A stretch of DNA of 28,032 bases, taken from a virus (Duplodnaviria; Heunggongvirae; Uroviricota; Caudoviricetes). Shown piece after piece: positions 2,856 to 24,691 of the stretch. The stretch lies in IMG/VR virus record IMGVR_UViG_648276649_000002; one strand, 5' to 3'. Both the position numbers and the translations under genes were made by a program. Position 1 is the stretch's first letter. The number at the start of each line of letters is the position of its first letter. The notes beneath the pieces are model-generated. The model saw only the letters and a program-made list of their open reading frames with translations, had not been told where the DNA came from and searched no databases.

Positions 2856-3074
2856 TCAAAGAGAGAGCGCCCCCTGTCCTGATTTCATTGGATGCGGCTG
2901 AACCGGATTTGACTCTTTTGGCGTTGCAATCGAACGAACAAAAGTTTCATGGGTTACAAAAGTATGGCTGCAGTTAATATTCTGGCACTGGTTGTAACGC
3001 TCTTTGGTCAATGAAGATACCTGAAAACTGCTGCGAGTATGGGCGGCACTTCCACACAGTGGGCAAATCATCAT
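2856..3074 (-). CDS. ogr: Ogr/B-family zinc-finger late-gene activator
   Basis: 72-aa product from ATG at 3074 (MMICPLCGSAAHTRSS...CQNINC) with Cys4 pattern like P2 Ogr; GGGAGA 9 nt upstream. Confidence 0.8.
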   Translation of the reverse strand: MMICPLCGSAAHTRSSFQVSSLTKERYNQCQNINCSHTFVTHETFVRSIATPKESNPVQPHPMKSGQGALSL

Positions 3075-3164
3075 TTTTCGAGTTCTCCCCATTTTTGCTA
3101 AATTCACAATAATGATACCGCATTATTCCATTTTGCAAACTTAAAAGTTCTCCATTGCGAAGAA

Positions 3165-6314: not shown

Positions 6315-6617
6315 TCAGGCTGTCGGTAAACCGGCAAGCACCGACTTCTTCAACAAAAAAGTGACAACCTCAACCGACATGGCAGTGAGATCTGCCGGGT
6401 CCATCTCTGCAATTTCCTGTGCAGTCAGTGCCGGACTGGAGATGCGGGGGATCACGGTCATCATCGCGTTCACATCCATATCCATAATGGCCTGCAGGCG
6501 TGTACCGCGCAGCGCACCGGACTGCGGTTTACGCAGCACAATTTCGGTGATTTCTGTTTTACCTCGCTTGATGGGGGTATCCAGTTGAATAGTCTTTTCA
6601 GTCTGCTTATCGCTCAT
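6315..6617 (-). CDS. E: tail assembly chaperone E
   Basis: 100-aa ORF directly upstream of the tape measure; contains the slippery heptamer near its 3' end. Confidence 0.8.
   Translation of the reverse strand: MSDKQTEKTIQLDTPIKRGKTEITEIVLRKPQSGALRGTRLQAIMDMDVNAMMTVIPRISSPALTAQEIAEMDPADLTAMSVEVVTFLLKKSVLAGLPTA
6354..6360 (-). other. programmed -1 frameshift slippery heptamer T TTT TTG (E to E')
   Basis: on the - strand reads ACT TTT TTG in the E frame; the -1 frame is open from here into the T ORF. Confidence 0.7.
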
Positions 6618-6671
6618 TTTGCTGTCCTGTAAATTGGGTTCTGGCGCGGTATCCCGCGCCGTTCAGATACA

Positions 6672-7187
6672 TCAGAGGCCGAGGGCGTTGCGGTGCGCTT
6701 CCATCAGGTCCACACCGTCCACAATTTCCACCATGTTGATAAGGTCCACTTCATAGAGCACCTCACCATTTATAGTCAGCTTCGCGTAGCTGTTGGTACT
6801 GGTCACTTTGGTGGTGTTGCTTTCGCCCGTCTTCCACTCTCCGGAATCCACTTCTTTGTGACGTCCACGCACCACAAGCTCCACAGCCTGCACTTCCCCG
6901 GTATCGTCACGCTGGATAGAGCCGGTAAAGCGCAGCTGGATGCCATCCACCGTAGCTTTGCCCATCTGTTTAAACAGCAGCAGTTCAGTACCACCAATGG
7001 AAAATTCTGTGTCCAGCGCACTGTCATCAAGCCCCAGATCCACATCCACTGCACCCGGCATTCCGCCGCCGCGATACTTCTCATATTTGCGGGTGAATTT
7101 CGGCAGCGTCAGCGACTCAACGATCCCCTGCCAGTTGTTCCCGTCATTAAACAGGTTCAGGTGTTTTAATTTGCGTGGTAAAGCCAT
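6672..7187 (-). CDS. FII: tail tube protein FII
   Basis: 171-aa ORF, size and position of P2 gpFII. Confidence 0.85.
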   Translation of the reverse strand: MALPRKLKHLNLFNDGNNWQGIVESLTLPKFTRKYEKYRGGGMPGAVDVDLGLDDSALDTEFSIGGTELLLFKQMGKATVDGIQLRFTGSIQRDDTGEVQAVELVVRGRHKEVDSGEWKTGESNTTKVTSTNSYAKLTINGEVLYEVDLINMVEIVDGVDLMEAHRNALGL

Positions 7188-7196
7188 GTTGTCCCC

Positions 7197-8036
7197 TTAC
7201 GCGCTGACCTGGCTGGAGAAATTCACCAGGTACTGATCGGTGATGCGCTGACGCAGCATCAGGTTTTCAAGTGGCGGCACTGGCGTGTAGTCGTAATCGA
7301 TGGTGAGTTTTCCGGCTTTCAGGGTGTCTTTGTCGTTCACCGACTCGTCCAGCCAGCAATCACCACCAATGAGATACCCCTGACTTACCAGGCTGCGCAT
7401 TTTGGCGCGGATACCCTCGATAATGTCGCGCGCCAGCGACGGGTTCAGCGGTTTGTCCACCGCCCACATGTGCGCTTCTGCCATTGTGTCCGTCAGCACC
7501 TGCGCCGTGCGAGTGTAGTTTTCGAAAGCAAAAAGCGGATCATCGCTCAGACAGCGGGAACCCCAGAAGCGGAAACCATCCTTGCGCACAAGCGTGGTGA
7601 CGTCGTTCTGGTTAAGCAGTCCCGCATCGGTTGCCGGGTCCTGCAGATCCCAGAACACATCAGCAGAAATTCCGGTGACACCGTTCACGCCCACGTTGGA
7701 CAGGCTTTTGTGCCATCCGGTCTGCTCGTCAATTTTGGCGCGCAGACCAAGCGCTCGGGCGGTGGCATATGCCGTTGCTTCGGCATTCAGCACCGTGTCC
7801 CAGCCAGTAAAGTCAGGCCAGATCAGCATCCCTTCGCGCTGGCTAAAGTTTTCACGGTAAGTGATCGCCTCCTGTACCGTCTTGCAGCCATACGCTGACA
7901 GGTAAGCAAATCCACGCAGGCTTTGCGCCACGCTCAGCAACTCAGTAGCTACCGCCTTGGTGTCGTGGCCTGGCACGCCGAGAATGCGCGGTTTAACGCC
8001 GAGCTGTGACTGGGCAGATAATCCAGTTGGTTTCAA
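7197..8036 (-). pseudogene. FI: tail sheath protein FI, 5'-truncated; retains about the C-terminal 280 of about 396 aa
   Basis: strong match to P2-type sheath from [11 protein letters not shown] onward to [12 protein letters not shown]; no N-terminal third and no ATG (the track start is TTG). Confidence 0.8.
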
Positions 8037-8148
8037 GGTCGCCCGTTTTCACCCGGCAAAGCCAGTTATCCCGGTCCACCTCGGTGACTACACCAGTGCG
8101 GATCAGGTTGGTGATAAGGCGCATGATTTCAGTCAGTTGTGCATTCAT
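7993..8148 (-). pseudogene. V: baseplate spike protein V, N-terminal fragment of about 45 aa then out-of-frame tail
   Basis: ATG at 8148; [36 protein letters not shown] resembles gpV N-terminus; runs into the FI remnant. Confidence 0.65.
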
Positions 8149-8159
8149 GAGAGCGATCC

Positions 8160-8188
8160 TTGCACAACCGGGTAGAGTGATGTAATAC
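8160..8188 (+). promoter_or_regulatory. candidate sigma70 promoter for the antisense moron ORF
   Basis: TTGCAC, 17-nt spacer, TAATAC on the + strand about 55 nt upstream of ATG 8244. Confidence 0.35.
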
Positions 8189-8196
8189 AGAGCGTA

Positions 8197-8214
8197 TGTA
8201 TGGAGAACCACACA
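8197..8214. promoter_or_regulatory. TGT-N12-ACA dyad, candidate Ogr-dependent late promoter element (pV)
   Basis: TGTatggagaaccacACA, centred about 57 nt upstream of the V' start codon; shares gaACCACACAAA with the dyad upstream of P. Confidence 0.4.
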
Positions 8215-8243
8215 AAAGAGAAACAATTTCTAAGGTATTTAAG

Positions 8244-9110
8244 ATGACACAAATCGCAATTTATGGATTTAATTTCACTAAAAAAATCACATTTGACGGT
8301 GGTGAGTTAACTCCTATTTTCAGTTCATGGAGTGAGTTAAAAAAAAATGGCTGGGATAATGATAGGTACATCCTCACTGGTTTTTTCAAACCAAACTCGA
8401 ATAACTACGCCACTCAACAGCAGCTTATTTTTGATTTACAAGCAGTTCTTAGTTTTATTGAACAAAAAAATGTAATCATTTCAGGAGAACTTGAAAATGA
8501 TGAAACCCCTTTCAATTTCAAACCATCTCTACCCAAAAAGCTTGACAAAAAAAGAGATAAGGGTGCGGGCATTATCATCATGGAAGATTATTTTGCACCA
8601 AACAGCCGAGAAAATTTTATTTGCTTAGCCATGGAAAAACTAAATAGTAAAGCCATGCTAAAACAAGATGCCTTTAGAACATCATTTTTTAAATCAATGC
8701 TAGCTTTCCGCGACTCAATAAATTATATCGACGTCAGATATTATTTATTATTCTCGGCACTAGAAGCACTTTGCAGATTTATTAAAAATGACTACTCCCC
8801 TGCCAAAACACCACAAATAATCACTCAGGTTTTAAAAGAATATGGTTTTAATGTCGAAAAAACAGGACATACATTAGCTCAAAGAAACATTATGCATTAC
8901 TGCAAACTCCGTCACTCGCTGTTCCACAATGGTAAATACATTGCCTATCTTGATGAAAAAAACTCAGATGGCAAAATTGAAATTCAAGATTACTCATCAA
9001 ATTTGAATTTACTGGTGCCACTTGTACTAATGAAATTCATAGGATTTGATGACAATTATATAAACTGGGACTCATGGATTGATAGGAATCCATTTATCAG
9101 TAAAAAGTAA
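8244..9110 (+). CDS. hypothetical cargo protein, possible HEPN-like (Rx4H) abortive-infection candidate
   Basis: 288-aa ORF from ATG 8244 with AAGG upstream; strongly AT-rich, antisense to the late operon; C-terminal YCKLRHSLFHNGK motif. Confidence 0.7.
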   Translation: MTQIAIYGFNFTKKITFDGGELTPIFSSWSELKKNGWDNDRYILTGFFKPNSNNYATQQQLIFDLQAVLSFIEQKNVIISGELENDETPFNFKPSLPKKLDKKRDKGAGIIIMEDYFAPNSRENFICLAMEKLNSKAMLKQDAFRTSFFKSMLAFRDSINYIDVRYYLLFSALEALCRFIKNDYSPAKTPQIITQVLKEYGFNVEKTGHTLAQRNIMHYCKLRHSLFHNGKYIAYLDEKNSDGKIEIQDYSSNLNLLVPLVLMKFIGFDDNYINWDSWIDRNPFISKK

Positions 9111-9136
9111 ACTAAATTTTATAAATGTGGTTTTAT

Positions 9137-9583
9137 TTATCTCTGTAACCAATTTAGCAAAGCATCCTGAATGACAGTTTCCACATCATCATTTACGCCT
9201 AGGAGACGACGCTCTGCATAACGGACCTCCGGTCCTCTTCGACTGATGCGATCACGCAGGCCGTAGTGATGAACGCGGGCAATGCGCTGCACCTTACCTT
9301 CAAACTGCACGCTGGCAGAATCGGCGCTGGCGGCAGTTTTCAGGTATTTTGTGGTGCGCAGCTTTGTAAACATCTGACGTTTGATGCGCCCCTTTTTGCT
9401 GCGTGCTGTTACCCGTCGCGGCTCATAACTGCTGCCATCTGGATTGCGCTGCATCCTGATGTTCTGCTGCTGTGTCCGGCGCAGTTCCTGCGCCAGCTGG
9501 CGCATCATGCGGCTTCTTGCGGCTGGCTCCAGATTCGCCAGCAAGGCACTCAGCCAGTCGTCCACCTTCTGCAATTCAGCCAC
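9137..9583 (-). CDS. S: tail completion protein S
   Basis: 148-aa ORF in the gpS position downstream of R. Confidence 0.8.
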   Translation of the reverse strand: MAELQKVDDWLSALLANLEPAARSRMMRQLAQELRRTQQQNIRMQRNPDGSSYEPRRVTARSKKGRIKRQMFTKLRTTKYLKTAASADSASVQFEGKVQRIARVHHYGLRDRISRRGPEVRYAERRLLGVNDDVETVIQDALLNWLQR

Positions 9584-10007
9584 GTTTCACCGTCCACATT
9601 TCTTCAGGTTCATCAGGTTCCGCTATAGCTTCAACGCTCGACACACTGCCGTCAGTGCTGACCAGCACACGCTCCGTCAGTTGCAGGTTCAGGCTGATAT
9701 CACAGACATCGTTGCGCAGAATATCCACCTCAAAGGTGAATAGTTTTTCCCGTAACGCCGGGTTATTGATGGCATCGGGCTGGTTATCCCGCAGCCACAG
9801 CAAAACCGGGGCCATCAGCAGATTCTGGTCGCCGCTGAAATCCTCAATCACTGCGTTCAGCGTGTAACGGTACTCCCACGACATGGAGCTGGTCCCCGTG
9901 GCAACCAGCGAACCGTTATCCACAAACAGATGCAGTTTGTCCGGGTTATTGCGGACATAAGGCACTGCTTTATTAAGGGCGTGGCGCAGGGATTGTGGTT
10001 TGTTCAC
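9576..10007 (-). CDS. R: tail completion protein R
   Basis: likely GTG start at 10007 with AGGAG 8 nt upstream; gpR-like size and position. Confidence 0.75.
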   Translation of the reverse strand: MNKPQSLRHALNKAVPYVRNNPDKLHLFVDNGSLVATGTSSMSWEYRYTLNAVIEDFSGDQNLLMAPVLLWLRDNQPDAINNPALREKLFTFEVDILRNDVCDISLNLQLTERVLVSTDGSVSSVEAIAEPDEPEEMWTVKRG

Positions 10008-15022: not shown

Positions 15023-15040
15023 TGTACCGACAACCACACA
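15023..15040. promoter_or_regulatory. TGT-N12-ACA dyad, candidate Ogr-dependent late promoter element in the O/P divergent region
   Basis: TGTaccgacaaccacACA centred about 56 nt upstream of the P start codon. Confidence 0.4.
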
Positions 15041-17923: not shown

Positions 17924-18928
17924 TTATTCTTCTGAATCATCATAAACATCCATTCCTTCGGTCTGATTTCTAATATAAGAAGCCCCCATAGAATTAGCAA
18001 TCGCAGTCCGAATTAACCCTACATGAGTGAAAAACACCCCTAACCTAGCACGCTTTAACTCAGACTCATCATCATAGTCATCTTCATTACTTATAATTCT
18101 TCTAACCATTGCCTTATCTTCGTCAATAGCCGAAGGTAGCCCACTCTTTAAAGCGTCAATACACTCACCTACAGTTATAATTTTATTTTTAATTAATTCA
18201 GAAAGCAAATCATCATAATTTTCATCATCAGATTTATTATCAGGTGGTAATTCACTTGCAGCTATCATTTTCAGCAATTCTACGTCAAGCATAGTTCCTC
18301 TATCTAGTCTGCTTGTCTCAACATACCCCTCACGCTCTGATAACACTCTTTCAAATTCGAAATCAACGACTTCAAGCAAAGCAGATACTCTATTAATTGC
18401 TCGCCTAAGAGGAAGTGGAACACTTTGCTCTTTTTTGTATTGCAGTTTATGAGATGCTGCAGCCCAAATATGCTGAGAAAGCGTTCGTATTTGCACCTCC
18501 ACTTTCATATTTTTAAAATCACTAAAGGATGGAACTCTTAGCCATTCTTCTGGAGGTTGTATTACATAATGATGAGATTGGTACCCAAATCTATCCTCAT
18601 CCAGTTCATCAAGTTTATTCTCTTGCTTCAAAATAATGAAATGTTCTTTCAGACAAGATATAACCTTTTCAACATCTCGCTTAAATAGCATTATTAATCG
18701 GATTCCAACATAATCATCCAAGTCAACTATTGACTCAATCTTTAGAGGTTTTCGGTTATCCTTATTAATAATAGAACTTAATGTTTTGACACGGCTTTCA
18801 ATTGGAACCCCTAAAGACAATTTATTCTCCGACAAAATAACATCAATTTGCTCAACCATAACTCGTCTGAACAATTCCGCAACTGAGCCGTAAATTGAAT
18901 GCTGTTCTTTTAATTCTTCGTCTGTCAT
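17924..18928 (-). CDS. RelA/SpoT-like nucleotidyltransferase (toxSAS-like) with uncharacterised acidic C-terminal domain
   Basis: motifs RVKTLSSIINK, DYVGIRLIM, GYQSHH and EVQIRTLSQHIWAAASHKLQYK in the N-terminal half; AT-rich; RBS-like AGGT upstream. Confidence 0.8.
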   Translation of the reverse strand: MTDEELKEQHSIYGSVAELFRRVMVEQIDVILSENKLSLGVPIESRVKTLSSIINKDNRKPLKIESIVDLDDYVGIRLIMLFKRDVEKVISCLKEHFIILKQENKLDELDEDRFGYQSHHYVIQPPEEWLRVPSFSDFKNMKVEVQIRTLSQHIWAAASHKLQYKKEQSVPLPLRRAINRVSALLEVVDFEFERVLSEREGYVETSRLDRGTMLDVELLKMIAASELPPDNKSDDENYDDLLSELIKNKIITVGECIDALKSGLPSAIDEDKAMVRRIISNEDDYDDESELKRARLGVFFTHVGLIRTAIANSMGASYIRNQTEGMDVYDDSEE

Positions 18929-19443: not shown

Positions 19444-19779
19444 ATGAACAATATTCCCCCTATACCACAGTTAGGAATTTATGTCTCAAAAATCGATCCC
19501 ACCCTACGTATCACTGTAACCGATGTTGATATTGTTGATGGTGAGGATGATTCTCCTGATGATGAATTGTTTTATTTAGTCCACTGGATCGAGGGGGAAG
19601 ATGAAAGTGATATGACAGCAATGGGATTTGAGCTAGACCCAGTAGAGTGGCAGGCTTTCGTTGAATCTGAGCAATTAGTGTTTGAGCGTGATCCGTACAT
19701 GGATTCAATCCCCGAAAATTCAAACTTGGCAAAGATTCGGGATTTTCTCATGAAGACTAAACAGAATGATCATTCGTAA
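19444..19779 (+). CDS. hypothetical small acidic protein
   Basis: 111-aa ORF with AAAAGGAG 7 nt upstream of ATG; very Asp/Glu-rich; sits where P2 carries old/tin. Confidence 0.6.
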   Translation: MNNIPPIPQLGIYVSKIDPTLRITVTDVDIVDGEDDSPDDELFYLVHWIEGEDESDMTAMGFELDPVEWQAFVESEQLVFERDPYMDSIPENSNLAKIRDFLMKTKQNDHS

Positions 19780-19971: not shown

Positions 19972-20205
19972 TTAATGCAGCCAGCTGTCGTCCTCCCACA
20001 CCTTCTGCATAATTTTCATCACTTGTTTTCTTTCTTCATCCAGTTGCAGTCCGGTTAGTTCCACACCGTTAGAGCTACCTTTGCGAATGCGAATTACCGT
20101 TTTGGGATACAGGGGGCGCAGATTGCGGTAAAGCTCGGATTCAAGTGCGTCCAGGGTAGACTGGCTAATCTTCTGCTCTTTATCGATCATTATTTCAATG
20201 CGCAT
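19972..20205 (-). CDS. DinI-family protein (Tum C-terminal-domain-like)
   Basis: 78-aa product from ATG 20205 (MRIEIMIDKEQ...VWEDDSWLH) resembles DinI; GAGGTGA upstream. Confidence 0.8.
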   Translation of the reverse strand: MRIEIMIDKEQKISQSTLDALESELYRNLRPLYPKTVIRIRKGSSNGVELTGLQLDEERKQVMKIMQKVWEDDSWLH

Positions 20206-20215
20206 AAAAGTCACC

Positions 20216-20404
20216 TCAGCTGATGACATCCATTGAGCGGTTGTATTCGTGGCTTCTGATTTTTGCCATGAGTTCATCAGTCAATTCAGAAACCCACTGC
20301 AGAGCCAGCCCCTTCTCTTCATCACTACACTCACTAGCCGCTACAAGCTTAAGAAAAAAATCAATGCGCTGGAGCTTCAAAGACTCCAAAAAATAGTCCT
20401 GCAT
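20216..20404 (-). CDS. small protein co-transcribed with the DinI-like gene; possible Tum N-terminal part
   Basis: 62-aa ORF with GGAGG 5 nt upstream of ATG 20404; its stop overlaps the DinI RBS. Confidence 0.5.
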   Translation of the reverse strand: MQDYFLESLKLQRIDFFLKLVAASECSDEEKGLALQWVSELTDELMAKIRSHEYNRSMDVIS

Positions 20405-20556: not shown

Positions 20557-22971
20557 TTAATACAGGTTCCGCCACTTATCATCTTCCTTCAGACGCTGGT
20601 TCCGATAGAAGATACGCAGGCCTGCTCCTGACGGAATACTGCCGCCGCGAAGGAGCAAATCGACTTCTTTCTCGCTGCCATCAAATCCCCTGGACTTCAG
20701 TTCATAGACGAGCTGCTGTCGCTGATGGTCTGTAATTCGCTGTTTGTAGTCTTTACGCCGTTTCGGTTTCACCTGGCGTAACCTTGCAGCCAGTTCCCGG
20801 CGCTCTTTTTTGCTCATACTGTGCAGGTAATCGTGCAACTCTTTGTCATTCATACGGGTAATATCCGTTCTGGAGTCCCCATCAGCTGATTTGTCTTTCC
20901 CTTGTTGGTTCAAATTTTCAGCAAGGGGACAGTTATTGCCACGAGTCCAAGGGGCGCAAGCGCCCTGGTCGGCTGCCGCCTCCTGAACGTCAACGGCCTT
21001 ACGAACCATTTTCCACTTCACTGCATGAGTGCAGATCTTGCCCTCTGCAATGGGTGACCAGATGCCATAAATACGAATACCGTGATCACCATAGGCGGTC
21101 GGCTCTTCGTTGATTTCATAAGCGGTTCTGATCAAGTGATATTTGCGGGGAACCAACACGCCGCCCTGCTTCATAATGTAGGTGGCAAAACAGCCAGCAT
21201 CAGCAGCAGCCAGAATGGCATCAAGACGCGGATCATCCAGTACCGGCGCACCTGCTTTTTTGTCACCCTGCTGCCTTGCCGCCTGACCAGCCAGCAATCG
21301 CAGTTCACGGTAAGCCTGACGCCCCGGAATGCCAAAGAAGCGGAATTGCTGAACACGATGCAGAGACGCCCAGGCATTAACGTATTCAGCGTTATCACGC
21401 AGGGATTTACCCGTTTCCTTGCTGATCTCGCCAGCCAGACCACGCCCGTCAATGTTCTTACTGATGTATTTCGCGATGTAGCTTGTCGGCGTTCCTTTGC
21501 GCGGGTTAATCAGCTCAGACTTAAAGCGTGGCCCCGTGTTATTGCCCAGTTCCTCGCGGTCTTCACGGATGGCAAACTTACGCAGTAATGCAGTGATGGC
21601 GCGGCGGTCTTTTTTACGCATGAAGCACATGAGATGCCAGTGCACAGTACCGTCATGATGCGGCTCAGCCACCCGCACGCCATACCACCGCAATCCGGCT
21701 TTGTGCATCGCCTTACGAAATGCAGCAAACATGCCGACCAGATAATCACTGCTTTGTCTTACCGTCGCATTTGTCCAGGTCGGGTTTGGTCTGCCGTTAT
21801 TGAGCGTGGAATGGAAACGTGACGGACAGGTGATGGTGTAGAAAACGGCGCAGTCACCGCGCATTTCCGCGATAAGCTCCAGACCTTTAACGCAGGCCAT
21901 CATCTCATTGCGGCGATGTGCCGGGTTGCTGCTGCTGGCGTTTACCACATCTTCCATATCCAGCGTGTCTCCGTCTTCGTTCACCAGTTCATGAGAACGG
22001 AAAAACTCCAGCGACTTGCGGCGCTGCTCACGTTTATGCGTCACTGCTTCATAGCTGACATAGGGAGATGCTTTTTTGCTGACCAGACAGACAGCACGCA
22101 ACTGCTCTTCCCGCCATTCGCAACGCATCTTCCACAATTTTCGATACCACCAGTCGGCGCAAAGCATACGTGCCAGCGAACCCGGTATGAGTTCATAGGG
22201 CACAGGTTTGCGGCGGTTTCTTTTCCGACGAAGTTTCTCAAACGCAGGCGGGATAACATCCAGACGCAGGGTTTCCGCAGCCACCTTTTCCCATGTCTTG
22301 CGGATTTCTTCTGGCTTAACGTCATCGGTGGCGTACAAATCACCACAAGCGGCCTCAAGACACATGCTCATATGCGCTGCTACCAGGGTGGACAGGCGTT
22401 TCACCTGATCCTGGCTCATTTCAGGCAGGATCAGCAGCCCCTCCAGCCCTTGATGGCTTGCCATAAAACGGAAAGAAACAGATAGCTGACTGTCACGTAC
22501 ACAATCCAGTCGCTCCAGACATGGCTTAATCGTCTCACGCAAATAGCGGGAATAAGCCTTTGGCCTGCCCAGGCTGCTGAAGTATTCGATACGTTGCATC
22601 AGCGGCTTGCTGATATGAGAAGGCTGGGCGCTGACATCTGCCAGAATGACCATGTCCGGGTTAAAACGCTGCTGCTCATGCGCCAGCTTTGCCCGGCTAA
22701 TGAGCTTATCCTGCTCCATTTCGCGCTGGACAGGATCACGGGATTCATTAAAGAAATAACGCTCCCAGACCTGCTCACTCAGTGCCTCGCGGCGCAGTTG
22801 TTCCTGCTCGTTATCGGCAGCGTACAGAGTGATCAGGTTTGAAAGTGCAGACTCCGGCGCAACTTCCGCCGGATCCAGATAAGGGTTAATGGCCTTTTTC
22901 GGGCCGTTCCATGAAAATGCTGCGGCAGCCTCGTTAAAGCCGCTAGAGTTGCTCATATCGTCATGACTCAT
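20557..22971 (-). CDS. A: replication initiation protein A (rolling-circle nickase)
   Basis: 804-aa ORF, P2 gpA-like size and position; overlaps the dam stop. Confidence 0.9.
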
Positions 22972-23825
22972 ACACGCACCTCGTACACAGCAGAACTATC
23001 CACGCCACGCGAAGGATCAAATCCCATCCAGCAGCGCGACCCGGAAACAGCAATGATTTCTGTTGCAGATTTACTCTCGCCAGCTGACACGCCGATGCTG
23101 CGTTTTGCCTTGATGTAGTGGTGAGTGAAATTGCGATACAGCGAACGGATCAGGGATGTGTCACTGTTAGAAACAATGACCGGATGACCTTCTGATGATC
23201 GATATTCAAGAACGGATGCCAGGTGATACTGGTCATCTTCAGTGAAGCCGTCAGTGTGATAACCGGAAAACGTGCCGTCATACGGCGGATCGCAATACAC
23301 CACATCCCCCGCCTTCAACATCGCCAGCGTTTCATCAAAGCTGGCGCAGATAAACGTTGCCCGCTGGGCTTTTTCTGCAAATGCGCGAATTTCTTTTTCA
23401 GGGAAATACGGATTTTTATAATTACCGTAGGGAATGTTGAAATGCCCGCTCTTGTTATAGCGACATAACCCACGGTAACCATGACGATTGAGATACAGGA
23501 AATATATCGCTTTCATGAAATCAGTAATTTCAGTTGAGTAATTAAACTCCTGCCTTATGTTGTAATAAGCTAGGTCACTGTTTGCTTCCTCAAACAAAGT
23601 TCTGGTCCGCGATATAAACGCCTCGCAATCAGCGGCAATCTTTTTATAGAGGTTGATTAAATCAGGATTAATATCCGCAACCAGATAGCTGGGGTAATCC
23701 GTCTCCATCATCACAGCACAGGAACCCGCGAAAGGTTCAACCAGTCGCGGGCCAGCAGGTAGGTATTTTTTCAGTTCGGACATAATTGCGGTTTTATTTC
23801 CCGCCCATTTCAGGATGGTGCTCAT
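22968..23825 (-). CDS. dam: DNA adenine methyltransferase (Dam-like, GATC family)
   Basis: ATG 23825; [12 protein letters not shown]-terminus, FAGSCAV SAM-binding motif and DPPY catalytic motif. Confidence 0.9.
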
Positions 23826-24049
23826 ACAGCACCTCCGTTGTAATGTTTGCCTTTCAGCTCTGCGATTTCCTGACAGGTAATGCAAAGCTGCACTCCAGGA
23901 ATGGCACGGCGGCGTGCTGGCGGAATTGGTGCTTCACATTCAATGCAAAGCACGCGAGACACGCCCGGTGTTTTGGCACGGGCAGCACGGATATGGCGCT
24001 GGCGTTCTTCTTCAACGCGCTGCTGTACGAGATCCATTGCATCAGCCAT
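23822..24049 (-). CDS. TraR/DksA-family C4 zinc-finger protein
   Basis: 75-aa ORF with CIECEAPIP...CITCQ four-Cys motif. Confidence 0.75.
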   Translation of the reverse strand: MADAMDLVQQRVEEERQRHIRAARAKTPGVSRVLCIECEAPIPPARRRAIPGVQLCITCQEIAELKGKHYNGGAV

Positions 24050-24349: not shown

Positions 24350-24691
24350 TTAATTCGGCATGGTTAGCCGTCTGGGAAATAAGCTCACCACTGCACGAAA
24401 ATGATTCATTGCTTTAATCAACTCCCGCTTTTCGTCAGTGGTCAGCTCATTAATGCTGATGCTATGACGTTCAGCTGGAATTTTTGCCATAAAGAATATG
24501 GCAGCCAGTGCTCGTTTATTTTGTTCGTTATTGATATCCCGTGGATCACGCATATCTTTAATAAACCGCTCAAGCTCTGACTCAATATTCAGGCCAAATA
24601 CTTTCGCCCTTAACTCCGCAATGTGATTAAGTCCATTCAGGCGTTCACCGGGGCTTAATGGAACAGTCGCCGCAGCGCCATTAATTGCCAT
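24350..24691 (-). CDS. hypothetical early-operon protein
   Basis: 113-aa ORF, same strand as the early operon, somewhat AT-rich. Confidence 0.5.
   Translation of the reverse strand: MAINGAAATVPLSPGERLNGLNHIAELRAKVFGLNIESELERFIKDMRDPRDINNEQNKRALAAIFFMAKIPAERHSISINELTTDEKRELIKAMNHFRAVVSLFPRRLTMPN

Follow-up and report, generated by a model that had tools for sequence, protein, structure and literature searches.

An AT-rich gene of 288 codons, lying between the tail completion gene S and the baseplate gene V of a P2-like prophage, was analyzed in a 28,032-nucleotide (nt) stretch of viral DNA (the window; IMG/VR record IMGVR_UViG_648276649_000002, Caudoviricetes). It is a self-contained, horizontally mobile cargo gene in the orf30 (S-V) site of a 186/P2-like Escherichia coli prophage; it is real, conserved and foreign in composition, and it occupies a recurrent cargo site. 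The C-terminal half of its product very probably has the HEPN fold, and we favour, with moderate confidence, the view that the gene encodes a single-protein HEPN-type ribonuclease (RNase) acting as an abortive-infection (Abi) defence of the lysogen.

The open reading frame (ORF) listed for this region (8196..9110, plus strand) comprises 304 residues; its actual start is the ATG at 8244, which gives a protein of 288 residues. This codon specifies the starting methionine shared by all homologues in an alignment of 41 relatives, and AAGGA or GGAG elements equivalent to its Shine-Dalgarno sequence are present in homologous loci. The identical coding sequence, with the same start, is annotated by RefSeq in E. 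coli BS15R-A (WP_000192048.1). The fraction of guanine and cytosine (GC) is 0.32–0.34 across 8201-9200 as against 0.54–0.59 on both flanks, and 33% in the cargo gene itself, with 55–58% around it. Values of 32–37% GC are common to the gene and 13 homologues from E. coli, Klebsiella, Salmonella, Halomonas, Acinetobacter, Smithella and Rahnella; the HEPN cargo family appears to carry its own base composition while moving between hosts. The cargo gene runs against its phage neighbours, every one of which is encoded on the minus strand. Start, composition and strand bear out what an earlier reading of the letters alone (hereafter the sequence-only reading) had described, namely an AT-rich antisense cargo ORF of 288 residues between S and V.

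The AlphaFold2 model computed from the 41-sequence alignment (mean predicted local distance difference test score 90.1; predicted template-modelling score 0.89) divides the protein into an N-terminal alpha/beta domain and a C-terminal helical domain. The latter contains the four-helix up-and-down bundle that forms the HEPN core, with helices tentatively assigned as H1 (residues 143–156), H2 (162–181), H3 (216–229) and H4 (251–265); beyond this core, the model shows a helix (121–135) before H1 and an extra helix (186–199). Structural matches comprise TTHA0636 (1wwp), HI0074 (1jog), the HEPN toxins 8xdj, 7ae2 and 5yep, 4nqf, YutE (1ylm), Csm6 (8jbc) and AF0298 (2hsb), with AbiA, Cas13h and AbiV lower in the same list. 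A HEPN-like fold, on which the sequence-only reading depended, is thus present in the predicted structure. The N-terminal domain, of about 115 residues, matched no family and is presumed to be a sensor or regulatory domain.

HEPN domains are defined by an Rx4-6H motif with a polar N, D or H after the arginine, located where helix 3 ends or the H3-H4 loop begins, and by a second, acidic residue in helix 2, usually within Ex3[KR]; inserts occur between helices 2 and 3 (Anantharaman et al. 2013, PMC3710099). In the model, the Rx4H motif of the cargo protein stands at the end of helix 216–229 and is followed by a loop and hairpin and then by helix 251–265 (DSSP assignment), while helix 186–199 forms an insert between helices 2 and 3 that fits this definition. 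Both putative catalytic motifs are thereby shown, at the level of the predicted structure, to occupy canonical HEPN positions. The sequence evidence does not depend on the structural matches. Arg223 and His228 are invariant in the 41 relatives and each is kept in 72 of the 73 sequences of a second, diverse alignment that reaches down to 19% identity. Of these 73 relatives, 65 have N, 4 have H and 3 have D directly after the arginine (N/H/D in 72/73), and the best-kept positions, G8, P24, E174, R223 and H228, are each found in 71–72 of them. Judged by these alignments, the conservation of R223 and H228 far exceeds chance, and the retention of arginine, polar residue, histidine and helix-2 glutamate reads as the signature of an active site under selection. 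The Ex3R motif adds independent weight to the HEPN assignment. It had gone unnoticed in the sequence-only reading, which had proposed R223-x4-H228 as a HEPN motif; the core of that reading, a horizontally acquired gene with a C-terminal HEPN-type RNase domain, is supported by both motifs.

The same residues bear on the alternative that the HEPN-like domain is a non-catalytic ligand- or nucleic-acid-binding module, as in some nucleotidyltransferase-associated HEPNs. HEPNs of that kind have lost Rx4-6H (PMC3710099), whereas the arginine, the polar residue after it, the histidine and the helix-2 glutamate are all kept here in 72/73 relatives, down to the 19% identity limit. Although some HEPN families lack catalysis (PMC3710099) and the sequence searches gave no family-level match for the cargo protein, we regard a non-catalytic role as very unlikely.

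The protein matches phrog_4373 over its full length (expectation value, E, 1.8e-142; residues 1–285 on profile positions 1–283 of 283). It is thus a member of that family, which has no assigned function, so that membership explains nothing. A word-indexed search of 5.8 billion proteins returned 78 homologous clusters, in which every source-named match is a ‘hypothetical protein’, and an exhaustive HMMER profile search of 1.84 billion representatives yielded 194 proteins in total. Nearly all full-length matches of the profile search are about 280 residues long with the same two-domain build, and this search revealed no bridge to any larger family. Searches of the PDB by sequence (the single protein and two profiles) returned only chance-level matches (9dm3, 2p1a, 1of5). 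When the 73 relatives were scanned, NCBIfam gave no recurrent family; in Pfam the sole recurrent family was HEPN_Apea (4 members, best E 0.0037, sub-threshold) and in PADLOC Cas13-ApeA was found in 4 members (best E 0.0059, sub-threshold). UniRef names the cargo protein Apea-like HEPN, a name that our local Pfam-A copy does not return at E 10; differing Pfam or InterPro releases may account for this mismatch. From the weak profile matches and the UniRef name, the closest family appears to be Apea-like HEPN. WP_000192048 is absent from searchable papers and no paper on the protein was found, nor did its accession or N-terminal peptide occur in the parts of the DefensePredictor supplements that were searched.

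The position of the gene accords with its being cargo. P2-like phages have three sites for foreign genes, orf30, Z/fun and the TO region (PMC3091744; PMC6823313). The P2 reference record shows S, a terminator, the antisense, nonessential Orf30 of 261 residues, the pV activator site and then V; P2 orf30 and the cargo gene share position and orientation: each is an antisense gene in the interval that follows the S operon and precedes the pV activator site. Cargo at S-V is therefore expected, because the junction is the classical P2 orf30 variable region and no unusual place for cargo, contrary to the premise of the sequence-only reading. Like orf30-region cargo, the gene lies between the S stop codon and the dyad, is dispensable and is compositionally foreign. 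Homology to P2 Orf30 itself was rejected (hhalign probability 0.2%), and the two loci differ in that P2 has an annotated terminator after S, whereas none is predicted at the cargo locus. At the empty site of phage 500465-1, only 4 nt separate the S stop codon from the dyad.

The occupants of the junction were surveyed in the 80 IMG/VR contigs with the closest gpS, as had been suggested from the sequence. In 75 of them the S-V junction is empty (about 60–69 base pairs, bp); three of the remaining five carry the cargo gene, one a 231-residue membrane protein and one a 442-residue P-loop protein that corresponds to the PADLOC candidate PDC-S59 (E 2e-197). The statement that V directly follows S in P2-like genomes consequently stands for most of the nearest gpS relatives and fails for P2 itself, with its antisense orf30. 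Including P2 Orf30 and a PIN-domain protein of Ralstonia phage RSA1, four unrelated S-V cargo proteins besides the HEPN gene were found in this small sample, all of them antisense to the late genes. S-V behaves as a hotspot for single-gene cargo would. Those published surveys of hotspots in P2-like phages that we examined cover the cos-proximal, Z/fun and tail-CI sites and not S-V.

The window allele is present in 24 of 5,426 complete E. coli genomes, always chromosomal and in single copy, and also in Salmonella and Citrobacter. In 35 IMG/VR contigs with enough flanking sequence, a homologue lies between V and S, always antisense; identities to the window allele are grouped at about 100, 97, 61, 57 and 36% (range 35–100%), and the flanking S and V proteins are 73–100% identical. 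The same arrangement is seen in the Klebsiella phage ST437-OXA245phi4.1 and the Salmonella phage RE-2010. A fixed site whose occupant diverges, or gives way to homologous alleles, is typical of arms-race genes. Distant homologues occur in 37 other species (gamma- and betaproteobacteria, Desulfobacterota, Bacteroidota and Campylobacterales), none of them adjoining P2 tail genes; the scan of species-representative genomes yielded no Vibrio cholerae locus. They are lone genes, some near integron-type integrases, PIN/DUF433 or HigB-like modules, and their further neighbours include SIR2, GajA and RecD-like proteins and PDC candidates. The 134 neighbouring ORFs of 35 distant loci contain no conserved partner. 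In Halomonas (L007 4693-9939), a 42%-identical homologue is the first gene after an integron-type integrase (Phage_int_SAM_4 and Phage_integrase) and is followed by small unrelated genes, a cupin, DUF6998 and acetyltransferases, a row that looks like an integron cassette array. At L011 1164-3766, another homologue stands beside PIN/DUF433 and Gp49/HI1420 toxin-antitoxin-like pairs.

This distribution speaks to the possibility that the protein serves the phage's own lytic programme or a counter-defence, as an RNase directed at host or competitor transcripts or at host immune RNA. The 5' end of the gene is 13–29 nt from the late-activator dyad, so that its expression could be tied to late activation, and the gene travels with P2-like phages in three enterobacterial genera. 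Its coding strand, however, is opposite to that of every late gene, and transcription set off by late activation, 55 nt from the dyad centre, would begin inside the ORF. The empty junction in 75 of the 80 closest phages shows that the gene is unneeded for growth, and homologues outside phages are lone or lie beside integron-like integrases. A lytic or counter-defence role is, in our judgement, distinctly unlikely.

The neighbourhood also bears on a prophage-stabilising role, in which the protein would be an addiction or post-segregational-killing toxin of the HEPN/MNT type held in check by a hidden antitoxin (a small RNA, an antisense transcript or a host factor). The HepT toxins of MNT-HEPN pairs (1wwp, 1jog, 8xdj, 7ae2 and 5yep), of which the last three are among the best structural matches of the cargo protein, are stand-alone proteins of about 130 residues encoded next to an MNT antitoxin gene; the cargo protein adds an N-terminal domain, further helices and a hairpin to this plan, and its gene, flanked by S and V, has no partner. 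Neither MNT nor any other conserved partner gene was found beside any of 37 genomic or 39 viral homologues, and no antisense ORF is conserved inside the gene. One distant homologue does lie among PIN/DUF433 and HigB-like modules, and convergence with S could yield an antisense RNA. An added N-terminal domain is nevertheless typical of sensor-effector defence proteins and not of minimal toxins, and the gene has survived undamaged although its prophage has lost the ability to form tails, which shows retention and not addiction. We consider an addiction toxin unlikely.

For a defence RNase there are single-protein HEPN precedents in ApeA (bioRxiv 10.64898/2026.01.26.701840), Tha (PMC11087260) and DS-11 (PMC13092281). 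ApeA, a system of Gao et al. 2020 (Pfam PF18739), cleaves tRNAs in their anticodon loops when activated by deoxydinucleotides (bioRxiv 10.64898/2026.01.26.701840). It has, as the cargo family does, a C-terminal HEPN domain with R-N-x3-H on helix 3, and both proteins carry an insertion between H3 and H4 and have HepT toxins (5yep, 7ae2/7ae8) as their nearest solved structures. ApeA differs in its length of about 580 residues and in its mainly helical N (1–198) and Mid (199–309) domains; these (about 300 residues) are absent from the cargo protein, which has an unrelated alpha/beta N-terminal domain and, in the database copies used, falls below every threshold of PF18739 and the PADLOC ApeA models. 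Tha, a tail-activated protein of Staphylococcus aureus prophages (PMC11087260), is likewise a single HEPN protein encoded antisense to phage transcription and raises, as the cargo gene does, the question of how self-killing is avoided once the prophage is induced. It differs in host, phage type and place in the genome, and the cargo gene has no conserved antisense ORF. The integron system ‘Esos’ resembles the cargo gene in being a single-gene system with only a HEPN-like domain.

The control region of V constrains how the gene could be expressed. The late-promoter activator dyad of the V operon is identical at 14 of 18 positions to a second dyad (15023-15040) between the divergent genes O and P, and its equivalent in the P2 record is labelled as the binding site of the pV activator; the dyad marks the V-side boundary of the cargo. 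The zinc-finger protein of the Ogr/Delta type encoded in the window would presumably be the binder of such TGT-N12-ACA dyads. From the dyad centre to the V start codon there are 57 nt, with the same geometry in 500465-1 and every allele-bearing locus, and across the phages examined this distance is 55–58 nt (window 8148-8214; L005 2952-3016; L168 1740-1809). The geometry agrees with the P2 record, in which V transcription begins on the initial nucleotide of the V reading frame. No recognisable Shine-Dalgarno sequence precedes V, which appears to be translated from a leaderless mRNA. On the other side, the cargo start codon lies 13–29 nt beyond the dyad in all alleles, so the cargo promoter must overlap the V control region.

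The sigma-70 promoter proposed in the sequence-only reading is not supported and does no better than chance. Its hexamers, TTGCAC (8160-8165) and TAATAC (8183-8188), each match the consensus at 3/6 positions; the pair was not called by a promoter scan, which found 2 sites in the region compared with a shuffled mean of 3.8. The empty-site phage has a counterpart of the ‘-35’ ahead of V (TGGCAA, in V orientation), and homologous loci do not conserve the ‘-10’. Nor do the hexamers overlap the V dyad, as had been claimed: they lie 9 nt from it. Some alleles, the window allele not being one of them, contain a -10-like TATGAT or TATGGT inside the dyad. On the S side, the cargo gene and S have stop codons 26 nt apart in the window, 22 nt apart in the Klebsiella phage and 1 nt apart in RE-2010. 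No terminator was found between the two genes (best fold -5.4 kcal/mol, z -0.77), and late transcription through S would therefore run antisense across the cargo.

Fold, motifs and context support the Abi reading; RNase activity, dimerisation, a phage trigger, a target, an abortive outcome and expression in the lysogen are inferred. Contextual support for defence comes from the PDC-S59 cargo at S-V and from the defence and toxin-antitoxin genes near some distant homologues. The lysogen would express the gene at a low level, because it lies on the strand opposite to the silent late operons. The protein would stay inactive until a superinfecting phage supplies a cue, perhaps sensed by the N-terminal domain or by the HEPN insertions; two HEPN domains would then form a composite, metal-independent RNase site, and the enzyme would cut cellular RNA (tRNA anticodon loops, mRNA or rRNA), bringing translation to a stop and aborting the infection.

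Several observations weigh against this defence role. IS1 interrupts the gene in 2 of the 24 genomes (E. coli strains 61 and 64; NZ_CP048326.1 and NZ_CP048322.1), which shows that it is dispensable and may indicate that it is costly. Around the distant homologues, many genes are plain housekeeping ones, so that the signal of a defence island, though present, is not strong. No convincing alternative promoter was found for the cargo gene, and its expression in the lysogen is assumed. With the cutoff relaxed to E 10, Pfam, NCBIfam and PADLOC still gave no match for the protein, and the family models of lactococcal-type Abi HEPNs (Abi_2/AbiD-F, AbiU2, AbiV, AbiJ/Abi_C) produced no profile match. 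Foldseek against the PDB returned nothing significant (best E 1.6).

A further proposal is that S-V constitutes a third defence hotspot of P2/186-like phages whose cargo toxin is switched off by the prophage's own late transcription. Late activation would occupy the cargo promoter region, and read-through from the S operon would send antisense transcription across the cargo gene, silencing the HEPN RNase when the phage must replicate. Such a shut-off would solve prophage autoimmunity by transcriptional means, as a counterpart of Tha/Ith (PMC11087260). As a whole, we rate this proposal as rather unlikely.

Table 1. Coordinates of the cargo gene, its protein domains and motifs, the S-V junction, cargo proteins at S-V in other phages, and accessory genes. 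Positions refer to the window unless a comparison locus (L006, L119, L163 or L168) is given.
Feature	Position	Strand	Remarks
Cargo gene, 288 codons plus stop	8244..9110	+	Two-domain protein, phrog_4373 member
Shine-Dalgarno sequence AAGG	8232-8235	+	8 nt upstream of ATG 8244; read from sequence
N-terminal alpha/beta domain, residues 1–118	8244..8597	+	Conserved G-I-Y-G near N-terminus
C-terminal HEPN-like domain, residues 121–288	8604..9107	+	Helical; beta-hairpin 233–246 between H3 and H4
Ex3[KR] motif E174-A-L-C-R178	8763..8777	+	In helix 162–181; E 72/73, R/K 71/73
Predicted catalytic motif R223-H-S-L-F-H228 (Rx4H)	8910..8927	+	Translation RHSLFH
Inserted cargo segment, dyad to S stop	~8215..9136	unstranded	Comparison with empty-site phage 500465-1
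Late-promoter activator dyad TGTATGGAGAACCACACA (TGT-N12-ACA), V operon	8197..8214	unstranded	Pattern search
Proposed promoter TTGCAC-17-TAATAC	8160..8188	+	Not supported; overlaps V late-promoter core on the other strand
Tail completion gene S (gpS)	9137..9583	-	Converges on cargo gene; stop codons 26 nt apart; no predicted terminator
Baseplate gene V remnant, first 44 codons	8015..8148	-	blastn against intact prophage; tblastn, V residues 1–43 in UViG_2531839147_000003
P-loop protein, 442 residues	L163 4494-5822	-	S-V cargo
Membrane protein, 231 residues	L119 4452-5147	-	S-V cargo
PIN-domain protein, Ralstonia phage RSA1 (phiRSA1)	L006 2916-3857	-	S-V cargo
P2 Orf30, predicted membrane protein, 261 residues	L168 940-1725	-	S-V cargo
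Ogr/Delta-like zinc-finger late activator	2856-3107	-	Accessory/regulatory gene
ORF of 334 residues, RelA_SpoT nucleotidyltransferase domain	17924-18928	-	E 7.6e-20
DinI-like protein	19972-20277	-	
D12-class Dam methyltransferase	22968-23885	-	Fused in register after gpA
DUF5347 protein	24350-24691	-	

The prophage that carries the gene is defective. Comparison by blastn with the intact prophage of E. coli BS15R-A showed that 6,336 bp have been deleted across a 7-bp microhomology (8015-8021): window 6358-8021 corresponds to positions 1-1664 of the BS15R-A prophage locus, and window 8015-10000 to positions 8001-9986. At the scar (7197-8148, minus strand), the V remnant runs on into the last 279 codons of the sheath gene FI. 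What has been lost is the beginning of FI, the genes for the invertase and tail fibres, I, J, W and the greater part of V. The phage can build neither a baseplate nor tail fibres. The cargo gene lies directly beside this V-FI scar, as the sequence-only reading had correctly noted. The same deletion is present in the IMG/VR contig UViG_2531839147_000003, which is 100% identical over 4 kilobases (kb).

The window begins with the host genes grxA-ybjM-ybjL (1-2620), 100% identical to sequenced E. coli strains, and the prophage opens with the Ogr/Delta-like zinc-finger gene. Past S, the minus strand carries R, the lysis genes and the head genes. The RelA_SpoT ORF matches the PADLOC candidate PDC-S33 (E 1.8e-16) and sits in an AT-rich region (~17.6-20.6 kb) flanked by the portal gene and gpA. 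This location is the classical cos-proximal (old/tin) defence hotspot, so that the ORF may be a toxSAS/CapRel-like defence gene. Its neighbour, ORF 19444-19779, gave no matches.

The novelty of the cargo protein is its architecture; the kind of system is already well known. Should it prove to be merely another Abi-type RNase, it would be ordinary, one more of the many HEPN proteins known from prophages. As a defence gene, it would add a compact single-protein HEPN system of 288 residues with a new sensor-type N-terminal domain, and, as a short relative of ApeA, it could show the minimal size of an infection-gated RNase. The wedging of the gene between late-promoter elements provides a testable idea for how a prophage escapes its own RNase, and the orf30/S-V site would, if the defence role holds, be a place from which anti-phage cargo of P2-like phages can be drawn.

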